NCBI RefSeq assembly: GCF_044647545.1
Contig: NZ_CP172818.1
Reading direction: 5' to 3' (one strand)
Source: Escherichia coli
Lineage (GTDB): Bacteria > Pseudomonadota > Gammaproteobacteria > Enterobacterales > Enterobacteriaceae
Length of the DNA stretch: 64,000 bases
Shown: piece after piece, positions 35,016 to 62,108 of the stretch
Layout: each line of letters starts with the position of its first letter
How positions within the stretch are numbered: position 1 is the first letter of the stretch
The notes under the pieces: generated by a model
Told to the model about the DNA's origin: nothing
Databases searched by the model: none
Seen by the model: only the letters and a program-made list of their open reading frames with translations
Made by a program: the position numbers and the translations under genes

Positions 35016-35048
35016 TCCCTCCCCATGAGGGGAAAGGCGATTAATACC

Positions 35049-36308: not shown

Positions 36309-36311
36309 GTT

Positions 36312-38292: not shown

Positions 38293-38530
38293 AAATTACC
38301 GACGACCTCTGAAGTTATCCTGACGTTTTACAGGCTTTGTATTAAGAAACTATTAAGCCTGTGAGATATTATTTTTACCGGTGAGAGAGTCACGTCAGGG
38401 TAGAGAGATAATGAGAGCAGCTATATAAGAGATCAGCGCAATTACGATATCTTGATTACACTGACAGGATTTTACATATTTAACGGATTATCCTCAGGAA
38501 AAAGGGCTGGAATACCAGCCCTTGTTTGTG

Positions 38531-39556
38531 TTAATCCCAGCTCAGGATAACTTTCCCGGACTGGCCCGAACGCATGGCGTCAAAGCCCTTCTGGAAATCA
38601 TCGATAGAGAAACGATGAGTAATGATCGGCGAAAGATCGAGGCCAGACTGAATCAGCGCCGCCATCTTGTACCAGGTTTCAAACATCTCACGACCGTAAA
38701 TACCTTTAATGAACAAGCCTTTAAAGATCACTTTGGTCCAGTCGATAGACATATCAGACGGTGGAATACCCAGCATCGCAATACGACCGCCGTGGTTCAT
38801 GGTGTCGAGCATGGTACGAAACGCTGGCGGCGCACCGGACATTTCCAGACCGACATCAAAGCCTTCGGTCATGCCCAGTTCTGTCATCACATCATTAAGG
38901 TTTTCTTTCGCGACGTTAACCGCACGGGTGATACCCATTTTACGCGCCAGCTCAAGGCGGTATTCGTTAACATCAGTAATCACCACGTTACGTGCACCAA
39001 CGTGTTTCGCCACCGCCGCAGCCATAATACCTATCGGACCTGCACCAGAAACCAGTACATCTTCGCCCACCAGATCGAACGACAGCGCAGTATGCACGGC
39101 GTTACCGAACGGATCAAAAATGGAAGCCAAATCGTCGGAGATATTGTCAGGGATTTTGAAGGCGTTGAACGCCGGAATCACCAGATATTCGGCGAAGCAG
39201 CCCGGACGGTTAACACCGACACCAGTGGTGTTGCGGCACAGATGGGTACGACCGCCACGACAGTTGCGACAGTGACCGCAAGTGATATGGCCTTCACCAG
39301 ATACGCGATCGCCAATCTTGAAGCCTTTCACTTCCTGACCAATACCTACCACTTCACCGACATATTCATGGCCCACGACCATCGGCACCGGGATGGTTTT
39401 TTGCGACCACTCATCCCAGTTATAGATGTGAACGTCAGTCCCGCAGATGGCTGTTTTACGGATTTTAATCAGCAGATCGTTATGCCCGAGTTCCGGTACA
39501 GGAACGTCGGTCATCCAGATGCCCTCTTCCGCTTTCAGTTTGGATAACGCTTTCAT
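38531..39556 (-). CDS. tdh: L-threonine 3-dehydrogenase
   Basis: 341-aa zinc-ADH family ORF ([43 protein letters not shown]...). Confidence 0.95.
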
Positions 39557-39565
39557 CTCACATCC

Positions 39566-40762
39566 TCAGGCGATAACGCCCAGTTGTTTACCAATACGCG
39601 TGAATGCTTCTACTGCACGCGTAATTTGCTCAGGGGTATGCGCCGCAGACATCTGGGTACGAATACGCGCCTGACCTTTCGGAACGACCGGATAGAAGAA
39701 ACCGGTGACGTAAATCCCCTCTTTTTGCAGCTCACGAGCAAATTTCTGCGCTACTACCGCATCGCCAAGCATGACCGGAATAATGGCGTGATCGGCTCCC
39801 GCCAGGGTAAAGCCCGCCGCCGACATTTGCTCACGGAACTGACGCGCGTTCGCCCACAGACGGTCACGCAGCTCGCTACCCGCTTCAACCATCTCCAGCA
39901 CTTTGATGGAAGCGGCAACAATGGCCGGTGCCAGCGAGTTGGAGAACAGGTACGGACGAGAACGCTGGCGCAGCCACTCAACCACTTCTTTGCGCGCCGC
40001 GGTATAACCACCAGAAGCCCCGCCCAATGCTTTACCCAACGTACCGGTAATGATGTCTACACGCCCCATCACATCGCAGTATTCATGGGAACCACGACCG
40101 TTTTCACCGACAAAACCGACCGCGTGGGAGTCGTCTACCATCACCAGGGCATCGTATTTATCTGCCAGATCGCAAACGCCCTTCAGATTGGCAATCACGC
40201 CGTCCATCGAGAACACACCATCGGTGGCAATCAGCACATGACGCGCACCGGCTTCACGCGCTTCTTTCAGACGAGCTTCCAGCTCCTGCATATCGTTGTT
40301 GGCATAGCGATAGCGTTTAGCTTTACACAGACGCACACCATCAATAATAGACGCGTGGTTCAGTGCGTCGGAGATAATGGCGTCTTCCGCGCCCAACAGC
40401 GTTTCAAACAGGCCACCGTTAGCATCAAAGCAGGAAGAGTAGAGAATCGCATCTTCCATCCCCAGGAAGGCCGCCAGTTTTTGTTCAAGCTCTTTATGAC
40501 TGTCCTGAGTGCCGCAAATAAAACGCACCGAAGCCATGCCGAAACCGTGAGAATCCATTCCCGCCTTTGCCGCCGCAATCAGATCCGGATGATTCGCCAG
40601 TCCGAGATAGTTATTGGCACAAAAGTTAATGACGTGGCTTCCATCAGCCACAGTGATATCTGCTTGCTGCGCAGACGTAATAATGCGCTCTTCTTTAAAC
40701 AACCCTTCCGCCCGTGCGGTTTCCAGATCGTTGGTTAACTGCTGATAACATTCTCCACGCAT
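39566..40762 (-). CDS. kbl: 2-amino-3-ketobutyrate CoA ligase (glycine C-acetyltransferase)
   Basis: 398-aa PLP-dependent ORF ([33 protein letters not shown]...). Confidence 0.95.
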
Positions 40763-40971
40763 TGCGATTCTCCAGACAGGGCAAATTCCAGCACATATTA
40801 CCCAAACTTATAGGTCGCGACGAGATGACGCGTTAACACTTCTGCAAAATTCAGGATAAATCCAGCCCCCTCACTTTTGGTGAATGGCTGAAGCCAACGT
40901 CATGTAGTGATATGATAAGAAGTATTCGTGTCTGAGATTGTCTCTGACTCCATAATTCGAAGGTTACAGCT

Positions 40972-41904
40972 ATGATCATCGTTACCGGCGGCGCGGGCTT
41001 TATCGGCAGCAACATCGTTAAAGCCCTGAATGATAAAGGCATCACCGATATTCTGGTGGTGGACAACCTGAAAGACGGCACCAAGTTTGTCAACCTGGTG
41101 GATCTGGATATCGCGGACTATATGGATAAGGAAGACTTCCTGATCCAGATTATGGCTGGCGAAGAGTTCGGCGATGTCGAAGCGATTTTCCACGAAGGCG
41201 CGTGCTCTTCCACCACCGAGTGGGACGGCAAGTATATGATGGATAACAACTATCAATACTCCAAAGAGCTGCTGCACTACTGTCTGGAGCGCGAAATCCC
41301 GTTCCTGTATGCCTCTTCCGCAGCCACTTACGGTGGACGCACCTCCGACTTTATTGAATCCCGCGAATATGAAAAACCGTTGAATGTCTACGGTTACTCA
41401 AAATTCCTGTTTGATGAATATGTTCGCCAAATCCTGCCTGAAGCGAACTCGCAGATTGTTGGCTTCCGTTATTTCAACGTTTATGGACCGCGTGAAGGCC
41501 ATAAAGGCAGCATGGCGAGCGTCGCTTTCCATCTCAACACCCAGCTTAATAACGGTGAATCACCGAAGCTGTTCGAAGGTAGCGAGAACTTTAAACGCGA
41601 CTTCGTCTATGTGGGCGACGTGGCAGATGTAAACCTGTGGTTCCTGGAAAATGGCGTTTCCGGCATCTTCAACCTCGGTACTGGTCGTGCGGAATCCTTC
41701 CAGGCTGTAGCAGATGCTACGCTTGCTTATCACAAGAAAGGCCAGATCGAATACATTCCGTTCCCGGATAAACTGAAAGGCCGCTATCAGGCGTTCACGC
41801 AGGCAGACCTGACGAATCTGCGCGCGGCGGGTTATGACAAACCGTTCAAAACCGTTGCCGAAGGCGTAACGGAATACATGGCCTGGCTGAATCGCGACGC
41901 ATAA
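40972..41904 (+). CDS. hldD: ADP-L-glycero-D-manno-heptose 6-epimerase
   Basis: 310-aa ORF ([33 protein letters not shown]...). Confidence 0.95.
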
Positions 41905-41913
41905 GAGCTCTGC

Positions 41914-42960
41914 ATGAAAATACTGGTGATCGGCCCGTCTTGGGTTGGCGACATGATGATGTCGCAAAGTCTCTATCGCACGCTCCAGGCGCGCTATCCC
42001 CAGGCGATAATCGACGTGATGGCACCGGCATGGTGCCGTCCATTATTATCGCGGATGCCGGAAGTTAACGAAGCTATTCCTATGCCTCTCGGTCACGGAG
42101 CGCTGGAAATCGGCGAACGCCGCAAACTGGGTCATAGTCTGCGTGAAAAGCGCTACGACCGCGCCTACGTCTTACCCAACTCCTTCAAGTCCGCATTAGT
42201 GCCTTTCTTCGCGGGTATTCCTCATCGCACCGGCTGGCGCGGCGAGATGCGCTACGGTTTACTTAACGATGTACGCGTGCTCAATAAAGAAGCCTGGCCG
42301 CTAATGGTGGAACGCTATGTCGCGCTGGCCTATGACAAAGGCATTATGCGTACAGCACAAGATCTGCCGCAGCCATTGTTATGGCCGCAGTTGCAGGTGA
42401 GCGAAGGTGAAAAATCATATACCTGTAATCAATTTTCGCTTTCATCAGAACGTCCGATGATTGGCTTTTGCCCGGGTGCGGAGTTTGGTCCGGCAAAACG
42501 CTGGCCACACTACCACTATGCGGAGCTGGCAAAGCAGCTGATTGATGAAGGTTATCAGGTGGTTCTGTTTGGCTCGGCGAAAGATCATGAAGCGGGCAAT
42601 GAGATTCTTGCCGCTTTGAATACTGAGCAGCAGGCATGGTGTCGTAACCTGGCGGGGGAAACACAGCTTGATCAAGCGGTTATCCTGATTGCAGCCTGTA
42701 AAGCCATTGTCACTAACGATTCTGGCCTGATGCACGTTGCGGCGGCGCTCAATCGTCCGCTGGTTGCCCTGTATGGTCCGAGTAGCCCAGACTTCACACC
42801 GCCGCTATCCCATAAAGCGCGCGTGATCCGCCTGATTACCGGCTATCACAAAGTGCGTAAAGGTGACGCTGCGGAGGGTTATCACCAGAGCTTGATCGAC
42901 ATTACTCCCCAGCGCGTACTGGAAGAACTCAACGCGCTATTGTTACAAGAGGAAGCCTGA
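41914..42960 (+). CDS. waaF: LPS heptosyltransferase II
   Basis: 348-aa ORF (MKILVIGPSWVGDMMMSQSLYRTLQARYP...). Confidence 0.95.
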   Translation: MKILVIGPSWVGDMMMSQSLYRTLQARYPQAIIDVMAPAWCRPLLSRMPEVNEAIPMPLGHGALEIGERRKLGHSLREKRYDRAYVLPNSFKSALVPFFAGIPHRTGWRGEMRYGLLNDVRVLNKEAWPLMVERYVALAYDKGIMRTAQDLPQPLLWPQLQVSEGEKSYTCNQFSLSSERPMIGFCPGAEFGPAKRWPHYHYAELAKQLIDEGYQVVLFGSAKDHEAGNEILAALNTEQQAWCRNLAGETQLDQAVILIAACKAIVTNDSGLMHVAAALNRPLVALYGPSSPDFTPPLSHKARVIRLITGYHKVRKGDAAEGYHQSLIDITPQRVLEELNALLLQEEA

Positions 42961-42963
42961 CGG

Positions 42964-43923
42964 ATGCGGGTTTTGATCGTTAAAACATCGTCGATGGGCG
43001 ATGTTCTCCATACGTTGCCCGCACTCACTGATGCCCAGCAGGCAATCCCAGGGATTAAGTTTGACTGGGTGGTGGAAGAAGGGTTCGCACAGATTCCTTC
43101 CTGGCACGCCGCCGTTGAGCGAGTTATTCCTGTGGCAATACGTCGCTGGCGTAAAGCCTGGTTCTCGGCCCCCATAAAAGCTGAACGCAAAGCGTTTCGT
43201 GAAGCGCTACAAGCAGAGAACTATGACGCAGTTATCGATGCTCAGGGGCTGGTAAAAAGCGCGGCGCTGGTGACGCGTCTGGCGCATGGCGTAAAGCATG
43301 GCATGGACTGGCAAACCGCTCGCGAACCTTTAGCCAGCCTGTTTTACAATCGTAAGCATCATATTGCGAAACAGCAGCACGCCGTAGAACGCACCCGCGA
43401 ACTGTTTGCCAAAAGTTTGGGCTATAGCAAACCGCAAACCCAGGGCGATTATGCTATCGCACAGCATTTCCTGACGAACCGGCCTACAGATGCTGGCGAA
43501 TATGCCGTATTTCTTCATGCGACGACCCGTGATGATAAACACTGGCCGGAAGAACACTGGCGAGAATTGATTGGTTTACTGGCTGATTCAGGAATACGGA
43601 TTAAACTTCCGTGGGGCGCGCCGCATGAGGAAGAACGGGCGAAACGACTGGCGGAAGGATTTGCTTATGTTGAAGTATTGCCGAAGATGAGTCTGGAAGG
43701 CGTTGCCCGCGTGCTGGCCGGGGCTAAATTTGTAGTGTCGGTGGATACGGGGTTAAGCCATTTAACGGCGGCACTGGATAGACCCAATATCACGGTTTAT
43801 GGACCAACCGATCCTGGATTAATTGGTGGGTATGGGAAGAATCAGATGGTTTGTAGGGCTCCAAGAGAAAATTTAAATAACCTCAACAGTCAAGCAGTTT
43901 TGGAAAAGTTATCATCATTATAA
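42964..43923 (+). CDS. waaC: LPS heptosyltransferase I
   Basis: 319-aa ORF (MRVLIVKTSSMGDVLHTLPALTDAQQAIPG...). Confidence 0.95.
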   Translation: MRVLIVKTSSMGDVLHTLPALTDAQQAIPGIKFDWVVEEGFAQIPSWHAAVERVIPVAIRRWRKAWFSAPIKAERKAFREALQAENYDAVIDAQGLVKSAALVTRLAHGVKHGMDWQTAREPLASLFYNRKHHIAKQQHAVERTRELFAKSLGYSKPQTQGDYAIAQHFLTNRPTDAGEYAVFLHATTRDDKHWPEEHWRELIGLLADSGIRIKLPWGAPHEEERAKRLAEGFAYVEVLPKMSLEGVARVLAGAKFVVSVDTGLSHLTAALDRPNITVYGPTDPGLIGGYGKNQMVCRAPRENLNNLNSQAVLEKLSSL

Positions 43924-43932
43924 AGGTAAAAC

Positions 43933-45192
43933 ATGCTAACATCCTTTAAACTTCATTCATTGAAACCTTACACTCTGAAATCATCAATGATTTTAGAGAT
44001 AATAACTTATATATTATGTTTTTTTTCAATGATAATTGCATTCGTCGATAATACTTTCAGCATAAAAATATATAATATCACTGCTATAGTTTGCTTATTG
44101 TCACTAATTTTACGTGGCAGACAAGAAAATTATAATATAAAAAACCTTATTCTTCCCCTTTCTATATTTTTAATAGGCTTGCTTGATTTAATTTGGTATT
44201 CTGCGTTTAAAGTAGATAATTCGCCATTTCGTGCTACTTACCATAGTTATTTAAATACTGCCAAAATATTTATATTTGGTTCTTTTATTGTTTTCTTGAC
44301 ACTAACTAGCCAGCTAAAATCAAAAAAAGAGAGTGTATTATACACTTTGTATTCTCTGTCATTTCTAATTGCTGGATATGCAATGTATATTAATAGCATT
44401 CATGAAAATGACCGCATTTCTTTTGGTGTAGGAACGGCAACAGGAGCAGCATATTCAACAATGCTAATAGGGATAGTTAGTGGCGTTGCGATTCTTTATA
44501 CTAAGAAAAATCATCCTTTTTTATTTTTATTAAATAGTTGCGCGGTACTTTATGTTCTGGCGCTAACACAAACCAGAGCAACCCTACTCCTGTTCCCTAT
44601 AATTTGTGTTGCTGCATTAATAGCTTATTATAATAAATCACCCAAGAAATTCACTTCCTCTATTGTTCTACTAATTGCTATATTAGCTAGCATTGTTATT
44701 ATATTTAATAAACCAATACAGAATCGCTATAATGAAGCATTAAATGACTTAAACAGTTATACCAATGCTAATAGTGTTACTTCCCTAGGTGCAAGACTGG
44801 CAATGTACGAAATTGGTTTAAATATATTCATAAAGTCACCTTTTTCATTTAGATCAGCAGAGTCACGCGCTGAAAGTATGAATTTGTTAGTTGCAGAACA
44901 CAATAGGCTAAGAGGGGCATTGGAGTTTTCTAACGTACATCTACATAATGAGATAATTGAAGCAGGGTCACTGAAAGGTCTGATGGGAATTTTTTCCACA
45001 CTTTTCCTCTATTTTTCACTATTTTATATAGCATATAAAAAACGAGCTTTGGGTTTGTTGATATTAACGCTTGGCATTGTGGGGATTGGACTCAGTGATG
45101 TGATCATATGGGCACGCAGCATTCCAATTATCATTATATCCGCTATAGTCCTCTTACTCGTCATTAATAATCGTAACAATACAATTAATTAA
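43933..45192 (+). CDS. waaL: O-antigen ligase (K-12 type)
   Basis: 419-aa polytopic membrane ORF (MLTSFKLHSLKPYTLKSSMILEIITYILCFF...), AT-rich. Confidence 0.9.
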   Translation: MLTSFKLHSLKPYTLKSSMILEIITYILCFFSMIIAFVDNTFSIKIYNITAIVCLLSLILRGRQENYNIKNLILPLSIFLIGLLDLIWYSAFKVDNSPFRATYHSYLNTAKIFIFGSFIVFLTLTSQLKSKKESVLYTLYSLSFLIAGYAMYINSIHENDRISFGVGTATGAAYSTMLIGIVSGVAILYTKKNHPFLFLLNSCAVLYVLALTQTRATLLLFPIICVAALIAYYNKSPKKFTSSIVLLIAILASIVIIFNKPIQNRYNEALNDLNSYTNANSVTSLGARLAMYEIGLNIFIKSPFSFRSAESRAESMNLLVAEHNRLRGALEFSNVHLHNEIIEAGSLKGLMGIFSTLFLYFSLFYIAYKKRALGLLILTLGIVGIGLSDVIIWARSIPIIIISAIVLLLVINNRNNTIN

Positions 45193-45223
45193 GAATAAAC
45201 AAGTTTAAGAAGTGAGTTAAAAC

Positions 45224-46297
45224 TCACTTCTTATCTATACAACTTAATCTCTTTACTGAATTAGTTAAAGTTTCAGTATCGATATCTTTTACCGTATATG
45301 TTGGGGATACTATTTGTATAGATTTATGATGATTCGGGGACCAAATTAAATGCGAGGGATATTCCGGAGTACGTGAATTAGGGTAAAATGCAAGCGTTGG
45401 TTTATGATAAGCCGCAGCGATATGAACAAGAGCTGTATCAACAGAAATGACAAAATCACTATACTTGGTCAACGCAACGGTATAAATAAACTCATCAAAT
45501 GGTAGTGTTTCGATTTCAAGTATTGGTATTGTCAATAAATCTTGCGGTAACCCGGTAAATATAATCCGATAATTTTCAAAGTGTGTTTTCACTTCTTGAT
45601 ATATAACTTTTATTTGCTCAAACGTAAGACGGCATATTTTTTTTGCACCTAATGGATTAATAATGACTATTCTTGTATCTCCAATAAATTCTTTTATTTT
45701 ATCTTCAACATCTACTGGTAAATGCAAGTCGTAGTTGGTGGAAAATTTACCCTCACCATAAATATGCTTCAGTATTTCTATTGCTCGTGTACTCATATGT
45801 TCTTTTAAACATTCATCGTGGGGATGGTAAAATGAATAGTAACGCTTATACCAATGATCAAAACCCAGAATGTAAGAATCTTTTAAACTTGATAATATTA
45901 AGCTATGCTTAAATGAGGGCATAGTTTCAAAGGGGTCTAATACAATATCGAACTGTAAATCCCGCAGATGCTTACATAGAGTAAGCATTTCAAGAAAACC
46001 GGTTGATTCTTTAATACAGAACTCAAATATATTTTTATTATTAGAGAGAAATTCCCCACCCTTTCTATTTGTGAGAAGAGTTATTTTAACCCCTTTACTA
46101 TAAAGTTCACGATAAATCGAACTTAATACAATTAGATCACCAAGTTTATTATTATCATGAATAATAAGGCATGATTTAACTTGTGCTGGATCTGTAATTT
46201 GATTATTTATTTTATTACGAAATAAAAAAGAAAGGAAATTAATCTTGATTTTGTTTATATAAAATCTTTTCTTTTTGTGAAAAGTTCCTAAGCGCAT
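45224..46297 (-). CDS. waaU: LPS core heptosyltransferase IV (WaaU/RfaK)
   Basis: 357-aa GT9-family ORF; position in the K-12 core cluster. Confidence 0.85.
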   Translation of the reverse strand: MRLGTFHKKKRFYINKIKINFLSFLFRNKINNQITDPAQVKSCLIIHDNNKLGDLIVLSSIYRELYSKGVKITLLTNRKGGEFLSNNKNIFEFCIKESTGFLEMLTLCKHLRDLQFDIVLDPFETMPSFKHSLILSSLKDSYILGFDHWYKRYYSFYHPHDECLKEHMSTRAIEILKHIYGEGKFSTNYDLHLPVDVEDKIKEFIGDTRIVIINPLGAKKICRLTFEQIKVIYQEVKTHFENYRIIFTGLPQDLLTIPILEIETLPFDEFIYTVALTKYSDFVISVDTALVHIAAAYHKPTLAFYPNSRTPEYPSHLIWSPNHHKSIQIVSPTYTVKDIDTETLTNSVKRLSCIDKK

Positions 46298-46329
46298 TTT
46301 TATACCATATTATTTTAGTTTCAGGATGA

Positions 46330-47181
46330 TTAATTAGCATAAGAATCGGTTGAAGTTCTATATTGCATTTTTTTTCTTGTCATATCTTTTGATTCTTCTG
46401 CACTGATGTCTTGAAGTTTAATAAATGGAATTACATCGTAAGAAATAGCTGTATCATCTGATAAATTATAAATATTAATATCTTTTACATTATCATGCAT
46501 AAAACGAAAAAATGGCAATATTTTGAATAAATCCCTACTTAATTCCGAGGGCATGGGATTTTTATTCTCATCATAGAAACGAGAACAGCTACCCGTTAAA
46601 TCAAGACCAGAACAAATAATCCGCGCATACTTAAGTGAATATGCGATTTGAATTGCAGCAAAGGCAATAGTATGGCATGAGCAATAACCAAGACTAATGT
46701 CCTTGCAAAATCCAACCAGACGACCTTTTTTAGACAACGGTACAGAGATCAGCAGTTCTTTGTGAATCTGTCTCAAAATATTAAATTTAATCTTCTTTAT
46801 AAAACCACCTTTTTCCCGACGGTAAAAGGACCGTAATACGAGGCAGTTCTGGAGGATATAAAGTTTATCTTCTTTGGAAGCGTGTTCATAAACGTCAACG
46901 TTTACTATGGTATAACGACTTCTCTGGCTAAATTTATAAAAATCATCACGACGCTGATGTAAAAATCGGACATCTGTAAGTACATATATAAAAGGAACGA
47001 TATTATTACTTAACAGATATTGCGCAGAACCATTGACAGCAATAATATCCTTTGTTCGTAATACTGACAAAGGTGTTTTTTGCGATGTAGGGCCCGAAAG
47101 AAAAATAATAACATCATCAGATATTTTATTTTCAATCAGGTTTTCAACATCTTTTTTGTCAATGTATCTAATATTCTTCAT
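46330..47181 (-). CDS. waaZ: LPS core biosynthesis protein WaaZ (KdoIII-related)
   Basis: 283-aa ORF (MKNIRYIDKKDVENLIENKISDDVIIFLSGPTSQ...); K-12 core-type gene. Confidence 0.8.
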   Translation of the reverse strand: MKNIRYIDKKDVENLIENKISDDVIIFLSGPTSQKTPLSVLRTKDIIAVNGSAQYLLSNNIVPFIYVLTDVRFLHQRRDDFYKFSQRSRYTIVNVDVYEHASKEDKLYILQNCLVLRSFYRREKGGFIKKIKFNILRQIHKELLISVPLSKKGRLVGFCKDISLGYCSCHTIAFAAIQIAYSLKYARIICSGLDLTGSCSRFYDENKNPMPSELSRDLFKILPFFRFMHDNVKDINIYNLSDDTAISYDVIPFIKLQDISAEESKDMTRKKMQYRTSTDSYAN

Positions 47182-47251
47182 GATAAACCTGTGAAATAAA
47201 TAACTCCGCTTAAAACTGTCCTGGTGAAGACATGTAATTGTGGGATTTTTT

Positions 47252-47950
47252 TTAGCGCGCTGGTTTCCCTTTCAAACGCCGCATAAAATTGCGCATTTTT
47301 TTACGATATACTAAAAGATAATAGCCTAGATCTCTAATCTCATTTTTAATACCGTAATGACGCTCTAAGTCAATACGATCTTTCGCTTTACGCTGCGCTG
47401 AAGCACGCTTTCCGGAGAGATCGATAATTCGAACCTCACCATTTTTTATAATGAAGTTACCACGATGGGGGTCGCCAGAAACCATGCCATGTTGATGTAA
47501 GGCATTAATTGATTGCTGAATTTTATTTTTTAGCGCATCATCAATATCGGGCATATCACACAACTCTATGCCATCAATATACTCGATGATCATGATATAA
47601 GTATGGACAAAACGTAAGGTTTTCCGTTCAGCCAATAAATAAAAGTCATTGAGTGTATTTAACCCTTCATTTCGTACTTTTTGGGTTTGCTCAAAAAGGC
47701 GTTCGTAATAATCACCTTTTAACAGAGACTTAAAGAAACGTTCGTTACGCTTAACTTTCGGAGAAAAAACCTTAAGAATCAATTTACCGTAATCGGTATC
47801 AATAAGCATAACTTTTGTATCATCAATAGAACGAAAAACCTTGATGATATTTATATTATAAGACAAGAAGTCATTTAATACATTGAGGTACTTTGAATTG
47901 TTTTCATCGGTAAAAACAACCAAGTCTTTGATCTTGCTCTTCTGAATCAT
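47252..47950 (-). CDS. waaY: LPS core heptose II kinase WaaY
   Basis: 232-aa ORF (MIQKSKIKDLVVFTDENNSKYLNVLNDF...), WaaP-like kinase fold. Confidence 0.85.
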   Translation of the reverse strand: MIQKSKIKDLVVFTDENNSKYLNVLNDFLSYNINIIKVFRSIDDTKVMLIDTDYGKLILKVFSPKVKRNERFFKSLLKGDYYERLFEQTQKVRNEGLNTLNDFYLLAERKTLRFVHTYIMIIEYIDGIELCDMPDIDDALKNKIQQSINALHQHGMVSGDPHRGNFIIKNGEVRIIDLSGKRASAQRKAKDRIDLERHYGIKNEIRDLGYYLLVYRKKMRNFMRRLKGKPAR

Positions 47951-47967
47951 AATAAACCAGTTAAATG

Positions 47968-48984
47968 TTATTTACGGTAATATTTTCGGCAAAGATAACA
48001 GACTCCTGCTATAATTCCTGAGATATAATGATGTTGCACTAAAAGATGTTTATATCTTTTTTTAAATTCAATAATTGATTTCGCATCTCGTGGAGAGTCA
48101 TCTTTCCAGGGGGAATTTTCTAAAGCTATTTTATAGTATTTTACCGATGGATAAATTGCCCATTTGTGCCACGGTTTAGTTGCACCTGTATAATGAATAA
48201 GAAGAGTACTTTCTGTAATCAGCTTTTTATAGTTTTGATGTGTTTTGTCTTTTAATTCACTTTTAATTGTATAAATTGTATTGTACTCACGAGGCAAAAA
48301 TAATGTCATCCCTTTCAGTAAGACATTCATAACATCCTGATCAGGGTATTTATAAACATTATCTTTACTCATAAGAATAGACAACGCTTTTTCTGTTAGT
48401 TTTGCGTCAGCCCATTTTTTTAAGTCTAAATAAACGACACCGGAATTAAAGTACTGCCCAAGTAATTCAGGATCAGACAACCTGGATACCGCCTTTTCTT
48501 GCATTGGCTCAACATCTTTAACAACAGCAGCAACCGCTCCATTTAAACCCAGATGTAATAGTTGGCTAATATCGCCTTTACAAACAACATCTGCATCAAG
48601 ATAAAGCAAACGATCAAGCGTTAAACCCAATAATTGAAATGCAAATAAACGGAAGTACATTGCTCTTGACCAGACCTGTGTACAAGGCAAGCACTGGAGC
48701 TTATCAGTGTTAATTCTATATAACGTGATTCTTAATTGGTTTTGCTCTGCAAGCTTTGCAATTTTTTGAAAAAAACCATCATTATAAACATCAGCAATAA
48801 TATAAAAATCAAGATTAATATGTCGATTATTTAGGACAATTGATGTGATGGAAACACCTACACCATCAAGATAATTAGCATCGACACCATAGGCAACATT
48901 TAAACATTCAGAAGTATTTATATTAGCTAGCCGAAAATCCCAGGCTTTAACTTTATCTATCTCTATGGCAGGAAATGAGTCCAC
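47968..48984 (-). CDS. waaJ: LPS 1,2-glucosyltransferase (WaaJ/WaaR, GT8)
   Basis: 338-aa GT8 ORF with a DxD motif. Confidence 0.85.
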   Translation of the reverse strand: MDSFPAIEIDKVKAWDFRLANINTSECLNVAYGVDANYLDGVGVSITSIVLNNRHINLDFYIIADVYNDGFFQKIAKLAEQNQLRITLYRINTDKLQCLPCTQVWSRAMYFRLFAFQLLGLTLDRLLYLDADVVCKGDISQLLHLGLNGAVAAVVKDVEPMQEKAVSRLSDPELLGQYFNSGVVYLDLKKWADAKLTEKALSILMSKDNVYKYPDQDVMNVLLKGMTLFLPREYNTIYTIKSELKDKTHQNYKKLITESTLLIHYTGATKPWHKWAIYPSVKYYKIALENSPWKDDSPRDAKSIIEFKKRYKHLLVQHHYISGIIAGVCYLCRKYYRK

Positions 48985-49023
48985 AATGCTACCCTTATAT
49001 CATTACTTTATAGTTTCCCAGTT

Positions 49024-50043
49024 TTAATGCTTTATCTTTTCAATAAAATAAAAAAGATAGTTGCTAAATCCTTTTAGATATCTATGCTTTTTAAGCATAT
49101 GTTTTGCGCTATATCTTAATTGATTGCTATTGTTCGGTTTCAGCAACGCCGTATTCTTCCATGGCGAAGCATTTTTTGCCTCCATAAAGGCTTGTGATAC
49201 AGGATAATCCCAGGCCCAATCATGCCAGGGCTTGGTTGGCCCGATATAATGGATAAAAATAGTATCGTTGGTTACTGGGTTTATAAAGCTTTCTTTGAGT
49301 TGATAATTTAAGCTGAACTGGGTGTTATATTTAATATCAGCGAAAATAAGTTTATCCGCCAGCAACATATTTAACACATCCTGATCAGGATGTGTTATTT
49401 TTTTGATTATTTCTGGCTCATTTAGCATTGCAATAGCTCGTGCAGAAACCTGCTGAGCCGCCCATTGGGCAGTATTAATCAATAAAAAACCGGAGTTAAA
49501 GTAACCTTTAGCAATTCCCGCAACACCTAACGAATGGGCGCGTTTTTCCCACCAGTCAGCTTGCCCTTCTGTAACAACCATTGCGACTTTATCGTCAGGA
49601 AATGAGAAATTAATTAGTGGCTCAATAGTCCCCTGACAAATGATATCTGCATCCAGATAAAGGACTTTAGGCGCCTTATTAATAAAGTAATCTGCAATAA
49701 CAAAACGAAAATATATTGCATGAGTCCAATTCTTAGTGCTAGGCAATGAGCGCAGTCGATCACCATTAATCAGATATATTTTAATTCTGGTTTTATACTG
49801 CAACGCCAGGGCATCAAAATACTTACGATCATCATCACCAAAATAATCAGTAAAAATATGGAAACACAATCGACTTCCTTCATTATATTTTAATATTGAA
49901 GCAATCGAAATTCCGCAACCAAATAGAAAGTTTTTGTCAGTTCCATAAGCGATGTCCAGACAAAGATTTTCTGTTTCTACTTTATGATCATAATCAATAA
50001 CTGAATTAAGAAACTCAGTTTCCTGGAAAAACACCTGCTGCAT
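49024..50043 (-). CDS. waaO: LPS 1,3-glucosyltransferase (WaaO/WaaI, GT8)
   Basis: 339-aa GT8 ORF paralogous to the preceding gene. Confidence 0.85.
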   Translation of the reverse strand: MQQVFFQETEFLNSVIDYDHKVETENLCLDIAYGTDKNFLFGCGISIASILKYNEGSRLCFHIFTDYFGDDDRKYFDALALQYKTRIKIYLINGDRLRSLPSTKNWTHAIYFRFVIADYFINKAPKVLYLDADIICQGTIEPLINFSFPDDKVAMVVTEGQADWWEKRAHSLGVAGIAKGYFNSGFLLINTAQWAAQQVSARAIAMLNEPEIIKKITHPDQDVLNMLLADKLIFADIKYNTQFSLNYQLKESFINPVTNDTIFIHYIGPTKPWHDWAWDYPVSQAFMEAKNASPWKNTALLKPNNSNQLRYSAKHMLKKHRYLKGFSNYLFYFIEKIKH

Positions 50044-51122
50044 TATTTCCTCCGGGAAATAGCAGAAATAATTACCTTATGTAATCTATCGTAATACTTC
50101 GATTGGTAAAATTCATCGATCGACGCAGGAATTTTTTCATGTTCGATATGAATTTCACCTGCTATATATTTATTTAGAAGAGTTACAAAACCAGCAATAT
50201 CTCCCGGTTGATACAGATGGCCATTGACATCAGGTTGAATAATGTCAGCAGGCCCGGAGACACAATCGGCACTGATACAAGGAATCCCCCACGACAAGGC
50301 TTCAAGTAGGGTCATTGGGAAACCTTCAAAAGATGACGTGAGCAATAACGCACTCACTTTTTCAATATCTTGCTGGACCAATTCCCAGGGATATTGTTGC
50401 CAACCATACCAGACAATTCGATCATCAATATTTAATTCTCTACCATAAGCCTGGCATTTTTCGAAATCGGAGCCATCACCCAATACATGGAGTTTCCAGT
50501 TACCTTTCGCTTGTGATAAGCCATCAAGCAGGTCTTTAACTCTTTTCTGGCCTTCAAATTTCATACGCCCAACATAAATAAACGTTGCCGTTTCACCTTC
50601 CTCGGGCGCGGGAATGACTGAGTCTTTAGTTTCGACGGGATTAAAAATAACATTTATCGTCGATTCTGCTACACCTCGATTAATCATTTGCTGTTTAATG
50701 CCAGAGCTGATTGCTAAATGATAGTCGGCACAGGTGATATATTCAGCATGTTTTTTGTGATCTAAAGAAAAATGTGGCCATGAAAATACTGGCATATCAA
50801 TTCCTGATTTTTTACGTGCTTTTGCGGCAAACAGGCAGGAGATCACATCAATACAAATAACGATATCTGGTTGGTACTCCTGAAGCCATTTACTTAGAGC
50901 ATGAATATGTTTCGCCCGACGCAAAAAACCTAAACGAATATTGGAAAATGAACATGAGTATTTAATACCTTCCAGCCATCCCTTATCCATTTTGTCATTA
51001 CGACAAAAGAAAAACATTTCACTTTGGATATGTTGTTGCCTGAAGGTAGTAATAACATCACGGATGACAGTTTCCATGCCGCCAAATCCAGAAACAGCTT
51101 CGCCGATAAACGCTATTTTCAT
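50043..51122 (-). CDS. waaB: LPS 1,6-galactosyltransferase WaaB
   Basis: 359-aa product from the ATG at 51122 (MKIAFIGEAVSGFGGMETVIRDVITTF...), GT4 fold. Confidence 0.85.
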   Translation of the reverse strand: MKIAFIGEAVSGFGGMETVIRDVITTFRQQHIQSEMFFFCRNDKMDKGWLEGIKYSCSFSNIRLGFLRRAKHIHALSKWLQEYQPDIVICIDVISCLFAAKARKKSGIDMPVFSWPHFSLDHKKHAEYITCADYHLAISSGIKQQMINRGVAESTINVIFNPVETKDSVIPAPEEGETATFIYVGRMKFEGQKRVKDLLDGLSQAKGNWKLHVLGDGSDFEKCQAYGRELNIDDRIVWYGWQQYPWELVQQDIEKVSALLLTSSFEGFPMTLLEALSWGIPCISADCVSGPADIIQPDVNGHLYQPGDIAGFVTLLNKYIAGEIHIEHEKIPASIDEFYQSKYYDRLHKVIISAISRRK

Positions 51123-51165
51123 AGAAACTCTCATTAATTGAGTAAAACTCACTGTTTTAACGGTT

Positions 51166-52101
51166 TTATTTGTCTATAAAATCAGAAACAATCGTTGACA
51201 TCATTTTATCTGGACTGAATTTATATAAACTATCATAATCCATTGGTTTAACAGATGAGTTAATAAAATACTCTAACTTATCCCAATCATCATGACCTAT
51301 TATAAAAAAGCGAGATTCACTATAGATTTCTGAACCAAATACATTTATATTATTAGTAATTAATTTTTTATTGAAAAATAGTGCCTCAAGTATACGAAGA
51401 GTCCAGCCAGATTGGTTTTCTTTGGTTATATCAACAATTATATTAGCATTTAATGTTCTTCTAATATTCTCTTCATAAGATATTTGTTTTTCAATCAAAT
51501 ACTTTGAAGTCGTAGATGATGTCTTATCTTTGACAACATTAAAATCTAGCTTACATCCTAGTGTTGTTAATCTCTCGGCTAACTCATTAATTATTTGAAG
51601 ACGCCCTTTATCACGACCAAGGAAAAAACATATTGGCTGGCTGTTATTTTTGTCAGATAAACTATAATTTCTAATTTCATCCATTCCTATAGGAAAAAAT
51701 TGTTCTATTGCCTTGATCTTTTCATTCCCTATAAATCTATGCTCAAAATCATATATAATATCGAAATAATTCGCGTTATCAAGAATAAAATCTTCGCCAA
51801 CAGTATTTCTTAGAAGCAAAACTTTATGACAGTTAATATTTTTTAATATTTGTTTATTGATACCTTTATTAACAACACTGTCATTAATGATAATTATGTC
51901 ATCTTTTTTAATATCATTGAGGTAATGCTTGATGAATAATCGCCCCAGCCATGCATTATCCATCCCTATTTTTGATATTTTTTTATTAATCCAGTTATAT
52001 TTTTTTGGTGTTGTTATATTTTTTATCTTGTACTTTTTTTTCAGGTACTGAATCATTTTTAATTCATAATCTGCAACCCAATTTATAAAATAAATAGTCA
52101 T
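51166..52101 (-). CDS. waaS: LPS core biosynthesis protein WaaS (rhamnosyltransferase-like)
   Basis: 311-aa AT-rich ORF ([33 protein letters not shown]...). Confidence 0.8.
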
Positions 52102-52137
52102 AATAAAGTTAGTTCCAGTACATACTAATAAATATTT

Positions 52138-52935
52138 TTATAATCCTTTGCGTTGTGTTCGCTCTTTAATACGCTCGGCCTTAACGCTTGCCATGTTCAA
52201 TAAATTCTGTTCAAGAGACAATATTTTGCGTAAAGGCATCCCAAAATACACTTTCATAAACCGCCAGATATCCCGCTGAGTCAGGCCGATATTCATCGAA
52301 GAAAAATAAAGCCCAATAAGATCTTTATCGCGCCAACGACGTGGAACGCGCGTGCGAAGCTGCGCCCGGTGCAGGTCAATTACTGAAATTTTTAACTCCT
52401 CTTCCTTACCGGAAAAAGGCAAGTGCAGCAGGAAATGACAGATATAACAGTCACGGTGGTTAATGCCCGCAGCATGCATATCGCGCACCATCGTCGCGAC
52501 ACGCTTAATAAGCATACGCTTTACGCGAACATCTGGTGGGTTGGTCGCCCAGTCAGCACAGTAATCTTCCAGACTGATGGTTGGTGTCAGATCTTCGGTA
52601 ATAATAAACGAGGTTCTGGTCAGCGGATTAATGCCTTTTTCGCCGAATGCCACCCCATACATAGTATCAACGCCGACATCCCGCAGTCGATGAATCGCAT
52701 TCCATTCGCGGTCTGCGCCTAATACTGGCATCCGCAATGAGAGTAAATTTTTGATTATCTCTTTCAGGGTCGTGCCGCGATGCCATTTGAGAAAATAGCT
52801 TTTGCCCGCCATTTCAAAGCGCAGAGTGCGGCGAGTTTCCAGTTCACGAAATACCTCACCCTGCAAGGTTTTAACTTCCTCAAAAGGATCTTTACCGCGC
52901 CATAACGTGGCAAACGGCTCTTTAAGTTCAACCAT
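52138..52935 (-). CDS. waaP: LPS core heptose I kinase WaaP
   Basis: 265-aa product ([40 protein letters not shown]...). Confidence 0.9.
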
Positions 52936-54052
52936 CCAGACCACCCGTTATGATGTCCGCTGCTTTCTCTGGCAGACTGTATAAATCTTGTGTATCAGCA
53001 TAATGTCGCGCATTTTCTGCCCAGGCCTGGCGCAATGAAGATTGCGTTAACGCTTTGCGTAAAATCTCATTCAATGTTTCCTGGCGGAATGGCTCAGCAA
53101 TAGCCTCGCCGCAATTGGCGTCAACAATATAATGCGCATAGCCACAAACGGCTGTTGTTAGTACCGGTAATCCTGCAGTAATCGCTTCCAGCAGCACAAT
53201 TCCCGCCGCTTCCTGGTAGGCAGGATGAAGTAATAAATCCGCCGCCGCCATTAATTCCGAGACATCGTTGCGCCCCGAGAAGAAGTGAACATTACTGCGC
53301 ACGCCGCGTTTTTCTGCCAGCGCCTCAAATTTTCGCGGTTTATCCTGCCCAACAACATATAGTAATGTGTTGTGGCGCAGCGAATCCGGTAACGAAGCAA
53401 GTGCTTCAATGGAACGATCGACACCTTTACGCGTGAAGTCTGAACCGACCTGCAACAATAAATATTGTTGTTCGGTTATTCCATTCTTCTTACGGAAGAT
53501 TTCACGGCTATTCGCTGGTTGCTGGCTATATTTACGATCAGGATAAATCCCCGGTGGCAGAATATGAAAACGCTCCGCTTCAGTCTGATAATGTTTCTGG
53601 AAATCGGCGATTTGCTTATCTGTCAGCATCAGCAGCTGTGTCGGCTTGCCCTGTTCGAAGGTTGCCCGCTCAAAGGCGGCATAATGGCGATAACGTGACG
53701 TCAGGCGATAGAAAAAGCCTTTCTCCTGCGCTACTTTCTCGGCATAACAAACATCAGCGGCATAATAAACGTCCAGCCCCGGCATTTTATTAAATCCAAC
53801 GACTCTATCGACGGGGTATTCACGTAAATGTTTTTGCACCCAGGCAAAATATTCCGCATTGCGCCCGTGATTGGTATGCGATTTAACCGGCACTTTGATC
53901 AGTTCAAATACATCAGGGCATTCGCCTTCCCACGACTGGGTATAAACCCGAACATGATGACCTCGGGCGGCAACTGTCTGAGCAATACGCATAAAATCGC
54001 GCTGCAAACCGCCAAAGGGAAAATATTTATATAAACAAAAAGCAACGATCAT
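52928..54052 (-). CDS. waaG: LPS glucosyltransferase I WaaG
   Basis: 374-aa GT4 ORF ([43 protein letters not shown]...). Confidence 0.9.
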
Positions 54053-55107
54053 AACGACGTACCTGTCGTGGAGGAGGGAAGTAATTTATCGACAGCTGCA
54101 ATGACATCTGCCGCCGGAATAACCGAAAGATACATCTCATTTCGGTCACGCTGATCGCGCGTTGGCATTTCCCGGTAATCTCCCGCCCAGAATTGAATCA
54201 TGTTATTTGACCAGGGACGCCAGAAAATATGGTCTGTCGCACCAAACAGCGATATCAGTGGCGTATTAACTGCAGCGGCAATATGCGCCGGTGCGGAATC
54301 AACGCCAATAAACAGCTGCGCATGATCGATTAACGCACCAAGTTCCGGGAAGGTCACCTTTCCGGCCAGTGCCGTTACTGGTGGCGTCTGGCATCCCTGC
54401 GCAATTTCATTGACGCAGGCCAGATCGTCTTTATCTGGGCCGGACGTCAGAACGACTTCATAACCACGAGCATGTAAGGCATCAATCACAGCGGAAAACT
54501 TGGCGTTGTCCCAGCATTTGAAGATTTGCCGCGCCGTAGGTTGGATAACCACATAATTTTGTCCAACACCAGCGTGATCAAGTTCGCGACGCATACGTTT
54601 CCAGCTTGCAGGCGGGTAACTCATGGTTGTCTGCTTCACCAACGATTCAAGTCCCAATGGCGTCAGCACGGATAAGTTACTTTCCACCACATTTCCACCC
54701 TGCAACGGCACCAAATGAGTGAAACTATTACGCCAAAAAGCAGACTGCCGATGATGATAATCCTGGGAAATTTTCACACGGGCATTTAATAAGCGAACCA
54801 GTATAGCAACCATCCATTGATCGGTAAGATTAACGATAAGGTCATACTTATTGGCACGTAATATCTTGATGAGATGGAAAAAGTTGGCAATTTTTTCTGA
54901 GGCTTTTGCTTTTTTATTTTTTATGCCGTAGAGCGCGTTAATCTCTGGATTTTCAGACAGGATCGGGATGGTGTCCTGATAAAGCAGCACATCGATTTTT
55001 GCGTCAGGGTAATTTTTTTTCAGCGAACTAATGACGGGAGTAGTTAATAACATATCCCCATGAAAACGCATCTTAATGAGCAAAATTCTTCGAAATGGCT
55101 TATCCAC
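54049..55107 (-). CDS. waaQ: LPS heptosyltransferase III WaaQ
   Basis: GT9-family ORF; the track start is the GTG at 55107 (352 aa). A TTG at 55083 would give the 344-aa length I recall for K-12 WaaQ, so the start is uncertain. Confidence 0.85.
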   Translation of the reverse strand: MDKPFRRILLIKMRFHGDMLLTTPVISSLKKNYPDAKIDVLLYQDTIPILSENPEINALYGIKNKKAKASEKIANFFHLIKILRANKYDLIVNLTDQWMVAILVRLLNARVKISQDYHHRQSAFWRNSFTHLVPLQGGNVVESNLSVLTPLGLESLVKQTTMSYPPASWKRMRRELDHAGVGQNYVVIQPTARQIFKCWDNAKFSAVIDALHARGYEVVLTSGPDKDDLACVNEIAQGCQTPPVTALAGKVTFPELGALIDHAQLFIGVDSAPAHIAAAVNTPLISLFGATDHIFWRPWSNNMIQFWAGDYREMPTRDQRDRNEMYLSVIPAADVIAAVDKLLPSSTTGTSL

Positions 55108-55156
55108 AAGTAACTCTTTTTGTTGAGATTATCCGATTAAGGTGAAGCAGAAAAAG

Positions 55157-55168
55157 CACGCTACCGCC
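55157..55168 (-). promoter_or_regulatory. ops element (GGCGGTAGCGTG) of the JUMPstart sequence in the waaQ operon leader; RfaH recruitment site
   Basis: Reverse complement of 55157-55168 is ggcggtagcgtg, located about 50-60 nt upstream of the waaQ start on the coding strand. Confidence 0.75.
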
Positions 55169-55519
55169 CCAGGCTCAACAGCTACCTGAATACTGATACC
55201 GCACTGATATTGACGCGCTAGTGTATCACTTCTTTCGCGGCAATCCGACCCGAATGATTTTTAAGCACATTGTTGATTTTCAATAAAGAAATCAATCAAA
55301 TAAAATCATTAGCAACCATATTCTTTTACTGTTGCTCTGCGATTCCTTCCTGCACGTACTGCAGAAATCAATGAATCGCATAAAAATACAAAAAAAGTAT
55401 AGATGTTCAGCAAGAATTGGCGGGTAAATTGCTATTTAAGTCAAAAACGGGAAAAGTAATGGTAAAGCCACAGCTAAATACATAGAATCCCCAGCACATC
55501 CATAAGTCAGCTATTTACT

Positions 55520-57284
<1,765 letters not shown>

Positions 57285-57291
57285 CGTTTAT

Positions 57292-57313
57292 GCCGGATGG
57301 TATGCCATCCGGC
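57292..57313. terminator. Hairpin between convergent coaD and mutM (probable bidirectional terminator)
   Basis: Perfect 9-bp inverted repeat gccggatgg / ccatccggc with a 4-nt loop. Confidence 0.55.
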
Positions 57314-57322
57314 TCGCATCAA

Positions 57323-58132
57323 TTACTTCTGGCACTGCCGACAATAAAACGTTGCCCGCTGCGCATGTTTAGTCGCCACAATTGGCGTACCGCACACCCG
57401 ACACGGCTCGCCTTTTCGCCCGTAAACCTGCAATTCCTGCGCGAAATAGCCCGGTTTACCATCACTTTGCAGAAAATCTTTCAGCGTTGTACCACCCTGC
57501 TCAATCGAACGCAGCAACACCGCTTTAATCACCCGAGCTAACAATTCACACTCTGCCAGCGACAGTGATGACGCCAGCCGATCCGGATGGATCCCCGCAG
57601 CAAACAGAGATTCGCTGGCATAGATATTCCCTACGCCTACCACCAGCTTGTTATCCATCAGCCATGGTTTAATCGCCGTTTTTTTCTTCGCGCACTTCTG
57701 ATGCAGGTACTCACCGTTGAAATCGTCGCTAAGCGGCTCCGGTCCAAGATGGGCCAGCACGTTGTGCCCTTCCAGCTCTTTGGTCCACAGCCAGGCACCA
57801 AAGCGGCGCGGATCGGTGTAGCGCAGCACTTTACCGTTGCTCATCACCAAATCAACATGGTCATGCTTTTCAGGGGGAAGTTCTTCTGGAAGGATGCGCA
57901 GGCTGCCAGACATCCCCAAATGAATGATAATCCAGCCCTCAGGCAGCTCCAGCAGCAGATATTTAGCCCGCCGCTGCACGCTAAGCACTGGTTGGTCGCT
58001 TAAACGGTAGATCTCTTCTGAAACCGGCCAGCGCAAGCGTCCGTTGCGCACCACCGCATGAAGAATGGTTGCACCAACGAGATGCGGTTCTATGCCGCGA
58101 CGGCTGGTTTCAACTTCGGGTAATTCAGGCAT
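57323..58132 (-). CDS. mutM: Formamidopyrimidine-DNA glycosylase
   Basis: 269-aa ORF starting [20 protein letters not shown] with C-terminal zinc finger CRVCGTPI...CRQCQ. Confidence 0.95.
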
Positions 58133-58229
58133 AGCATCTCCAGGAATGAACAGATGCAGTCAATATGGGGGCAAGCAGATAACAAAAAACCCCGCCGGAG
58201 CGAGGTTTTTCGTTACATCAAAGCGAGAA

Positions 58230-58400
<171 letters not shown>

Positions 58401-58417
58401 TTATTTCCTCTAAGTAC

Positions 58418-58675
<258 letters not shown>

Positions 58676-62070: not shown

Positions 62071-62108
62071 TATGACGTCCGGCATGATTATTCATCCAGC
62101 GAATATTT

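Follow-up and report, generated by a model that had tools for sequence, protein, structure and literature searches.

How does a chromosome of Escherichia coli come to carry a K-12-type outer core in a lineage that is associated with another core type? The question is raised by a 64,000-nt stretch of contig NZ_CP172818.1 (assembly GCF_044647545.1), hereafter the window, which contains the waa locus for synthesis of the lipopolysaccharide (LPS) core. At the centre of the locus lies a block of eight outer-core genes, waaL to waaS (43,933 to 52,101), which an initial annotation had described as AT-rich and of K-12 type. Our comparisons revealed that all 8,169 bases of this block are 100% identical to K-12 laboratory strains, while the DNA on both sides of it appears to derive from a lineage resembling sequence type 648 (ST648). 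The region is very probably the K-12 form of the low-GC, variable segment at the centre of the waa locus, a cassette exchanged as a unit, and the arrangement most likely arose when homologous recombination replaced one core-type cassette with another.

The block is set apart by its base composition. Its GC content is 0.333, compared to 0.505 in the remaining window, and in 500-bp windows the value falls from 0.53–0.55 to 0.25–0.40 between ∼43.9 and 52.2 kb. Among the eight outer-core genes, GC is lowest in waaS (0.268) and highest in waaB (0.396), and GC at third codon positions (GC3) lies between 0.23 and 0.35; in the flanking genes GC is 0.51–0.54 (hldD, waaF, waaC and waaA) or 0.47 (waaP, waaG and waaQ), with GC3 values of 0.45–0.62. 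The lowest-GC stretch of 8,169 bp in the window begins at 43,976, and the sole other region below 0.40 GC is the tip of an rhs element at 12.4–18.1 kb. A maximum-likelihood fit of two change-points over 36–60 kb placed these at 43,860 and 52,260, with a log-likelihood of −16,154 compared to −16,491 for a single composition, a gain of ∼337 units. The AT-rich block is genuine and far exceeds what chance would produce. Indeed, the contrast with hldD-waaFC and waaPGQ that the initial annotation had noted is borne out, and a GC profile of the waa region contains the expected step. The proposed limits of the block were right as to location but somewhat too narrow, as the change-points imply that the low-GC, type-specific DNA is slightly wider and includes the final ∼60 nt of waaC and the final ∼104 nt of waaP. 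Homology to the R1, R3, R4 and R2 loci ends and restarts at these edges, specifically at 43,862/3 and 52,241/2.

A low-GC variable centre is a known feature of the waa locus, for which exchange by homologous recombination has been proposed (PMC8715443), and the mosaic structure invoked in the initial annotation agrees with this literature. The only open reading frames (ORFs) of at least 100 amino acids (aa) in 43.8–52.3 kb are the eight LPS genes, so that the region does not have the makeup of a mobile genomic island; no insertion sequence and no integrase, transposase or phage genes are present there or next to the block, although flanking direct repeats were not explicitly searched for. Likewise, the annotations of the waa loci that we compared contain no mobility genes, and the literature reports none in waa cassettes and no known donor outside Escherichia/Shigella (PMC8715443). 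These observations, together with the similar GC content of all five core-type blocks (0.33–0.35) despite their differing genes, would also accord with an explanation in which the low GC reflects selection on these genes, through membrane-protein composition or control by H-NS and RfaH, and not foreign origin. However, the drop is strongest at third codon positions, which amino acid composition does not explain, and AT content is as high for the soluble WaaY, WaaS and WaaZ as for the membrane protein WaaL. Moreover, alternative, nonhomologous cassettes that occupy one site with sharp common edges are the signature of exchange. We therefore consider selection an improbable explanation; five low-GC cassettes that are devoid of mobility genes fit acquisition and exchange by homologous recombination from a low-GC source (PMC8715443).

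For core typing, the window proteins were compared with annotated loci of the five classical gene orders, in which the R1 locus was that of E. coli C, the R3 locus that of O157:H7, the R4 locus contained a gene of glycosyltransferase family 25 (GT25) and the R2 loci had their own ligase, an N-acetylglucosamine (GlcNAc) transferase and a GT8 gene at the waaS position. All eight outer-core proteins are 100% identical to those of K-12, and at the DNA level the tract with zero differences from K-12 extends from 43,878 to 52,248. WaaL shows no match to the R2 and R3 ligases (E<1e-5) and is 30–32% identical in amino acid sequence to the R1 and R4 ligases, and neither WaaU nor WaaS has a counterpart in the R1–R4 loci. 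Specifically, waaU is present in place of waaK/waaD, encoding a GlcNAc transferase, or of waaV/waaX, and waaS sits between waaB and waaP, where R2 has wabA (PMC13293308). WaaY is 52–58% identical to its R1, R3 and R4 homologs, WaaB is absent from these three types, and the best R1, R3 and R4 matches of the window GT8 enzymes reach 40–57%. The window does not match the type-specific genes of R1 (waaV/waaW/waaT), R3 (waaD/waaJ) or R4 (waaX/waaW/waaT), and no GT25 or GT-A gene is found in its outer-core block. Thus, none of the eight proteins falls in another core type, and the comparison supports a K-12-type outer-core cassette.

The closest alternative type is R2, the counterparts of which are 88.4% (WaaZ), 92.5% (WaaB), 92% (WaaY), 89.6% (WaaJ) and 88% (WaaO) identical to the window proteins. 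The initial annotation had based the K-12 assignment on waaU, waaZ and waaS; since R2 also has waaZ, this gene is not diagnostic, and, as judged from the sequences compared, the diagnostic K-12-type genes are waaL, waaU and waaS. R2 and K-12 share waaZ, waaY, waaJ, waaO and waaB, and R2/K-12 hybrids are on record in which waaU/waaK or waaL has been exchanged (PMC13293308), which is why it matters that all eight genes are the K-12 allele. The identity to K-12 DNA is continuous across the block, and the R2 waaK, wabA and ligase have no match in the window. We thus rejected an R2/K-12 hybrid cassette, or some other type misread from gene names, as a reading with hardly any probability.

The K-12 assignment stands for the outer-core cassette and does not extend to the window itself. 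A base-by-base map showed that tdh-kbl-hldD-waaFC is 1–4% divergent from K-12, that waaP, waaG and waaQ are 22–35% divergent and that the DNA from waaA onward is 1–2% divergent; waaC is only 99.1% identical to K-12, with 9 substitutions within its last 820 nt. The amino acid identities to K-12 are 90.2% for WaaP, 90.4% for WaaG and 72.8% for WaaQ, whereas all three proteins are 98.9–99.7% identical to the R1, R3, R4 and ST131-like alleles (98.9% for WaaQ against the O157, R4 and HS-01 alleles). Indeed, waaPGQ of E. coli falls into two deep allele classes with 74–76% nucleotide identity between them, identity within classes being 95–99% in the majority class and 90% between K-12 and R2. The window class is present at ≥95% identity in 4,469 of 5,426 complete genomes and the K-12 class (∼76% identical) in 955, apparently K-12-like and R2 strains, and K-12-type outer cores occur with either class. 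The initial annotation had treated waaPGQ as a plain conserved flank, a view that had to be abandoned, as the window has the majority class and K-12 the minority class that it shares with R2. Because WaaQ is 98.9% identical to the majority alleles but 72.8% identical to that of K-12, the variable region of K-12 reaches through waaQ, whereas that of the window comprises only the outer-core cassette.

Between kbl and hldD (40,762–40,972), yibB (htrL, 1.25 kb) is absent from the window. It is also absent from the strain 1428, ST131-like, R1, R2 and R4 loci and present in K-12, HS-01 and O157:H7.

Apart from the block, identity to K-12 is 95–97% across the window, and across 40–58 kb no K-12 genome exceeds 95% overall, and the best genomes reach only 99.0%. 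The window thus does not contain a complete K-12 reference waa locus, since the K-12 alleles of waaP, waaG, waaQ and waaC, as well as yibB, are missing. The perfect identity of the block could be taken to mean that the window is E. coli K-12 or a derivative with the block in its native context, but the divergence of waaC and waaPGQ led us to reject this reading, to which we assign a negligible probability.

Both flanks are 100.0% identical to genomes that include strains ST648, ECONIH1, MS6198, IMT16316 and the canine strain 1428. Compared to strain 1428, the window is 99.93% identical over 17,203–25,388, 99.96% over 25,484–43,862, 100.000% over 52,242–62,071 and 99.9% over 62,097–64,000, with no match in 43,863–52,241; the cassette of strain 1428 is R4. 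From 52,242 onward waaP, waaG and waaQ are 100% identical to strain 1428, and genome H84 is 100% identical from the same position. Among the contigs read (30 of many), the WaaG allele of this backbone always had R4 genes beside it. A survey of core types links ST648 to R4, and phylogroup F to R4 (51%) and R1 (46%) (PMC13293308). The sequence comparisons therefore point to a backbone of an ST648-like lineage that normally carries R4, the label being taken solely from flank identity.

The two junctions coincide with the edges of the cassette. On the left, the window follows strain 1428 to 43,862 and is K-12 type thereafter, so that the switch falls in the last ∼60 nt of waaC, at the point beyond which the five types can no longer be aligned. 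The window shares with strain 1428 a T at 43,815 that every K-12-type locus examined lacks. Its A at 43,877, 15 bp into the cassette, is private, with T in every K-12-type locus examined, and changes one residue (I to N) near the WaaC C terminus. On the right, K-12-type sequence continues to 52,241 and 1428-type sequence begins at 52,242, ∼104 nt inside the 3′ end of waaP, at the edge common to all core types. As the switch points fall inside both genes, WaaC and WaaP are hybrid proteins.

At the right junction K-12 shares just 7 bp (52,242–52,248) with the backbone, and because its waaP is too divergent, K-12 itself is excluded as the direct donor by homologous exchange. A likely donor would be a K-12-type strain that already had the majority-class waaPGQ, of the kind represented by HS-01 and BS-01. 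The HS-01 block shows zero differences from the window and is joined to majority-class waaPGQ, and BS-01 is identical to the window from ∼51.1 kb to 52,383. Given such a donor, the crossover intervals are 43,816–43,862 on the left and 52,242–52,383 on the right. We propose that the cassette was exchanged as one unit by homologous recombination in the conserved flanks. If the whole cassette was switched, the exchange tracts end ≤48 bp (left) and ≤142 bp (right) from the heterologous cassette, and heteroduplex extension that stops at heterology could give such short flanks ending at the cassette edge. The chromosome is probably a natural recombinant, a view that we hold with modest to fairly high confidence. 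More specifically, we lean slightly toward a recent natural switch of the whole cassette, between R4 and K-12 type in either direction, in an ST648-like chromosome (phylogroup F, high-risk extraintestinal pathogenic E. coli).

Several points weigh against this account of the region as a whole. Exact look-ups of the hybrid WaaP (265 and 268 aa) and the hybrid WaaC in a large gene-position index returned none, and neither JGI metagenome contigs nor GTDB representative genomes contain a 44-mer spanning the right junction, so that the arrangement has no support from a second isolate. The 44-mer was found only in BS-01, and the right junction region is present at ≥98.6% identity only in BS-01, HS-01 and BS-04 among the 5,426 genomes, all three from one farm study, none of which is identical to the window across the left junction. 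The imported flanks are unusually short for ordinary homologous recombination. Finally, the enzyme functions, RfaH dependence and H-NS binding discussed below are carried over from work on K-12 and CFT073.

The same features invite the suspicion that the K-12 block is an artefact, namely a chimeric or contaminated assembly or an in silico join of an ST648-like isolate and a K-12-type strain. The switch points lie exactly where parental homology starts and ends, and it is at such places that graph-based assemblers jump from one path to another. The block does not differ at a single base from a laboratory strain in ubiquitous use, neither hybrid protein (WaaP or WaaC) occurs in any other public assembly, and in the contigs read the WaaG allele of the backbone has only R4 genes as neighbours. 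However, with only 7 bp in common at the right junction, K-12 itself cannot be the contaminant, and majority-class waaP must have been present in the donor beforehand, as it is in the natural isolates HS-01 and BS-01. No K-12-type locus examined has the private base at 43,877, and the block is without frameshifts or indels. In addition, the window differs structurally from strain 1428 in five other respects (the Fic gene, the YadA-like adhesin and the reverse transcriptase are missing, the rhs tip is different and a copy of insertion sequence IS1 is present), none of which is K-12-identical; specifically, the empty sites of the three strain 1428 insertions (Fic, YadA-like and reverse transcriptase) are not K-12 sequence. 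Because these differences are not K-12 sequence, the window looks like a distinct natural strain and not like a mixture of two genomes. A general chimera of K-12 and an ST648-like genome, or a K-12-guided assembly, was rejected on the grounds that identity to K-12 is only 95–97% at the start of the window and at the sites of the Fic, rhs-tip, YadA-like and reverse-transcriptase differences. We regard an artefact as unlikely, and prefer a natural switch of the cassette.

The features of the locus are collected in Table 1. The eight ORFs lie at the positions given in the initial annotation and are intact, with lengths equal to those of the RefSeq K-12 proteins and no indels or frameshifts, and gene content and order, waaL followed by the convergent waaU-waaZ-waaY-waaJ-waaO-waaB-waaS on one strand, are as the initial annotation had listed them and match the RefSeq annotation of K-12 gene for gene. 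The RefSeq names in the homologous K-12 stretch are waaL, waaU, waaZ, rfaY, rfaJ, waaO, waaB and rfaS. In profile searches, WaaZ, WaaY, WaaO and WaaB scored above the NCBIfam equivalog cut-offs. RefSeq and NCBIfam NF011718 call WaaO a lipopolysaccharide 3-alpha-galactosyltransferase, a name that appears to be inherited from the Salmonella enzyme; according to the K-12 literature, WaaO adds glucose (PMC6358824). The hairpin between waaL and waaU is weak evidence for a terminator, as such sites are not more numerous than in shuffled sequences (14 versus 13.0). A scan for promoter consensus sites likewise gave no excess over shuffled sequences (49 versus 45.1) and was not used.

Table 1. Features of the waa locus, with positions numbered from the first base of the window. 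GT, glycosyltransferase family; Kdo, 3-deoxy-D-manno-octulosonic acid; ops, operon polarity suppressor element.
Feature	Position	Strand	Evidence or remark
hldD, heptose epimerase, backbone allele	40972..41904	+	ORF, annotation of homologous loci
waaF, heptosyltransferase II, backbone allele	41914..42960	+	ORF, annotation of homologous loci
waaC, heptosyltransferase I	42964..43923	+	Backbone allele except last ∼60 nt, K-12-type
Core-type-specific low-GC cassette, K-12 type	43863..52241		Change-points, zero K-12 differences and homology edges
waaL, O-antigen ligase, K-12 type, 419 aa	43933..45192	+	100% aa identity to K-12; Pfam Wzy_C
12-bp-stem palindromic hairpin, candidate bidirectional terminator	45206..45233	-	31-bp gap, convergent waaL/waaU
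waaU, GT9 heptosyltransferase IV, 357 aa	45224..46297	-	100% identity to K-12; Pfam Glyco_transf_9; function PMC13293308
waaZ, Kdo III transferase, 283 aa	46330..47181	-	NCBIfam equivalog NF007333, 554 bits
waaY, heptose II kinase, 232 aa	47252..47950	-	NCBIfam NF007684, 400 bits; Pfam WaaY
waaJ (= waaR), GT8 alpha-1,2-glucosyltransferase, 338 aa, GTG start	47968..48984	-	Pfam GT8 + GT8C
waaO, GT8 alpha-1,3-glucosyltransferase, 339 aa	49024..50043	-	NCBIfam NF011718, 582 bits
waaB, GT4 alpha-1,6-galactosyltransferase, 359 aa from annotated ATG	50043..51122	-	NCBIfam NF007396, 610 bits
waaS, WaaS/CpsH-family glycosyltransferase (rhamnosyltransferase), 311 aa	51166..52101	-	NCBIfam NF053598, 179 bits; function PMC6358824
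waaP	52138..52935	-	Majority-class allele; C-terminal ∼35 codons K-12-type
waaG	52928..54052	-	Majority-class allele
waaQ	54049..55107	-	Majority-class allele
JUMPstart with ops GGCGGTAGCGTG (55157-55168) in waaQ leader	55157..55195	-	Rfam RF01707
waaA, Kdo transferase, right conserved locus boundary	55520..56797	+	ORF; 99.8% aa identity across compared loci

The roles of these enzymes are known from the K-12 literature (PMC6358824, PMC8151780, PMC13293308). By analogy, the flank-encoded WaaG would add glucose I, WaaO and WaaJ/R would add glucose II and III, WaaB would add the galactose branch and WaaU would add heptose IV, the attachment site of O-antigen. WaaO, WaaJ/R, WaaB and WaaU would thereby assemble the outer core of K-12, Glc-Glc-Glc(-Hep IV) with galactose as a branch (Glc, glucose; Hep, heptose), and the gene set predicts an outer core that ends in heptose IV on glucose III and bears galactose on glucose I. 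WaaY would phosphorylate heptose II, WaaZ and WaaS would add, respectively, an optional third Kdo and rhamnose in stress-induced glycoforms, and WaaL would ligate O-antigen to the finished core.

An Rfam scan of 38–60 kb identified JUMPstart only, with a score of 55.2 bits (gathering score 35, E = 2e-10); matches to istR and Leu-leader near 58.2 kb did not reach their gathering scores and were attributed to chance. The exact ops sequence has a single match in the window, with 0.07 expected by chance, and the window thus has the structural hallmark of RfaH-dependent operons, an ops within a JUMPstart in the waaQ 5′ leader. This element is the loading site of the antiterminator RfaH, on which the K-12 waaQ operon is known to depend (PMC6358824, PMC8151780). 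RfaH counter-silences H-NS, and rfaQ/waaG is bound by H-NS in CFT073 (PMC9765446). The genes waaU to waaS probably form the distal part of a long waaQ operon on the minus strand, and transcription through the AT-rich, H-NS-prone block would depend on RfaH loaded at ops/JUMPstart. We infer, by analogy with those systems, that such counter-silencing by RfaH may apply to the 33%-GC block.

Several known loci resemble that of the window closely. The waa (rfa) locus of K-12 (MG1655 and derivatives) has the same DNA over 43,878–52,248, with the same genes in the same order and orientation, and the same layout of an ops/JUMPstart-led waaQ operon, but it differs by its minority-class waaP, waaG and waaQ (90, 90 and 73% aa identity), by yibB upstream of hldD and by waaC and other flanking genes that are 1–4% different. 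The K-12-type waa locus of ST131-like genomes (for example, AR_0086; STc131, PMC8715443) resembles the window in combining K-12 gene content with majority-class waaG and waaQ and in lacking yibB. Its block, however, is a different haplotype with 95.8% nucleotide identity to that of the window, its waaP is a mosaic in which the 3′ part is K-12/R2-like to ∼130 bp past the cassette edge, and its junction region is 91.6% identical to that of the window. The Indonesian farm isolates HS-01, BS-04 and BS-01 share with the window a K-12 block joined to majority-class waaPGQ; the block of HS-01 is K-12-identical and that of BS-01 partly so, with the exact right-junction sequence. They differ in a K-12-like left flank, with a WaaC protein that is the same as that of K-12 and, in HS-01, yibB, and their waaPGQ and right flank are ∼1–2% off the window. 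In BS-01, which is the closest relative at the junction, the block is a mosaic with K-12-identical ends and a middle that is ∼5% diverged, and in its locus (3,381–11,086) frameshifts or an internal stop are annotated in waaU, rfaY and rfaP, which could be real decay or long-read assembly errors.

The ST648-like genomes (1428, ST648, ECONIH1, MS6198 and IMT16316) match the window at 99.9–100% in the flanks, including waaC to 43,862. In place of the 8.4-kb K-12 cassette they carry an R4 cassette of ∼5.9 kb (waaO, waaT, waaY, waaW and the GT25 gene) with waaL on the other strand, and they contain three insertions missing from the window (Fic, YadA-like and reverse-transcriptase). The R2 type shares with the window waaZ, waaY, waaJ, waaO and waaB (88–92.5% aa identity) and the cassette edges, but has its own ligase, waaK for waaU, wabA (GT8) for waaS and minority-class waaPGQ. 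The R2/K-12 hybrids (PMC13293308) show that parts of a cassette recombine; the window is not such a hybrid.

Elsewhere in the window, comparison with strain 1428 showed the absence of a Fic-family gene (∼1.4 kb) at 3,410, of a YadA-like autotransporter gene together with a DUF3251 gene (∼6.5 kb) between lldP and yibL (25,388–25,484) and of a reverse-transcriptase-family gene (∼1.3 kb) between pyrE and slmA (62,071–62,097). The IS1 copy lies at 326–1,095 (InsA and IS1 transposase domains), and the K-12 alignments on its two sides overlap by 9 bp, consistent with a 9-bp target duplication. A search for a closer relative of the left 19 kb was uninformative, since the IS1 copy dominated the matches.

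An Rhs element lies in the region 8,971–17,200. Its 1,259-aa ORF ends ∼20–30 codons past the conserved DPIGL core motif and is followed by an extremely AT-rich segment of ∼1 kb (12,750–13,740) that contains no ORF of at least 80 aa. The best homolog is the RhsB tip/yhhH region of the backbone genomes, with only 74.6% identity; the sequence at 13.6–15.7 kb is 100% identical to strain 1428, and that at 15.7–17.2 kb is again highly divergent. This pattern may represent replacement or decay of an Rhs toxin/immunity tip. Downstream of the element, an ORF with a Tlde1 domain followed by an Imm57 immunity ORF (17,285–18,284) apparently constitutes an orphan toxin/immunity pair. Outside the waa cluster, waaH (GT2, 37,258–38,292), which homolog annotation identifies as the LPS heptose III glucuronic acid transferase, lies in a patch of moderately low GC (0.41–0.45).

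The block itself is already known, being the K-12 outer-core gene set to the base, and the apparently clean replacement of a cassette in an R4-associated lineage is a new instance of a process that the field already assumes. The core type governs the recognition of rough or partly rough cells by phages, antibodies and lectins (DC-SIGN, for example; PMC8715443), and also which ligase attaches the O-antigen. Typing surveys use it as a lineage marker, as in ST648-R4 and STc131-K-12 (PMC13293308, PMC8715443), and a K-12 cassette in an ST648-like backbone indicates that this marker can switch cleanly. Moreover, the K-12 type pairs with two very different waaPGQ sets, which outer-core typing schemes do not report. 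If the recent natural switch that we slightly favour did take place, it would represent a clean, datable change of core type in a clinically relevant lineage, and it would suggest that exchange tracts are trimmed to the edge of heterology, so that the five cassettes could keep their sharp common boundaries.

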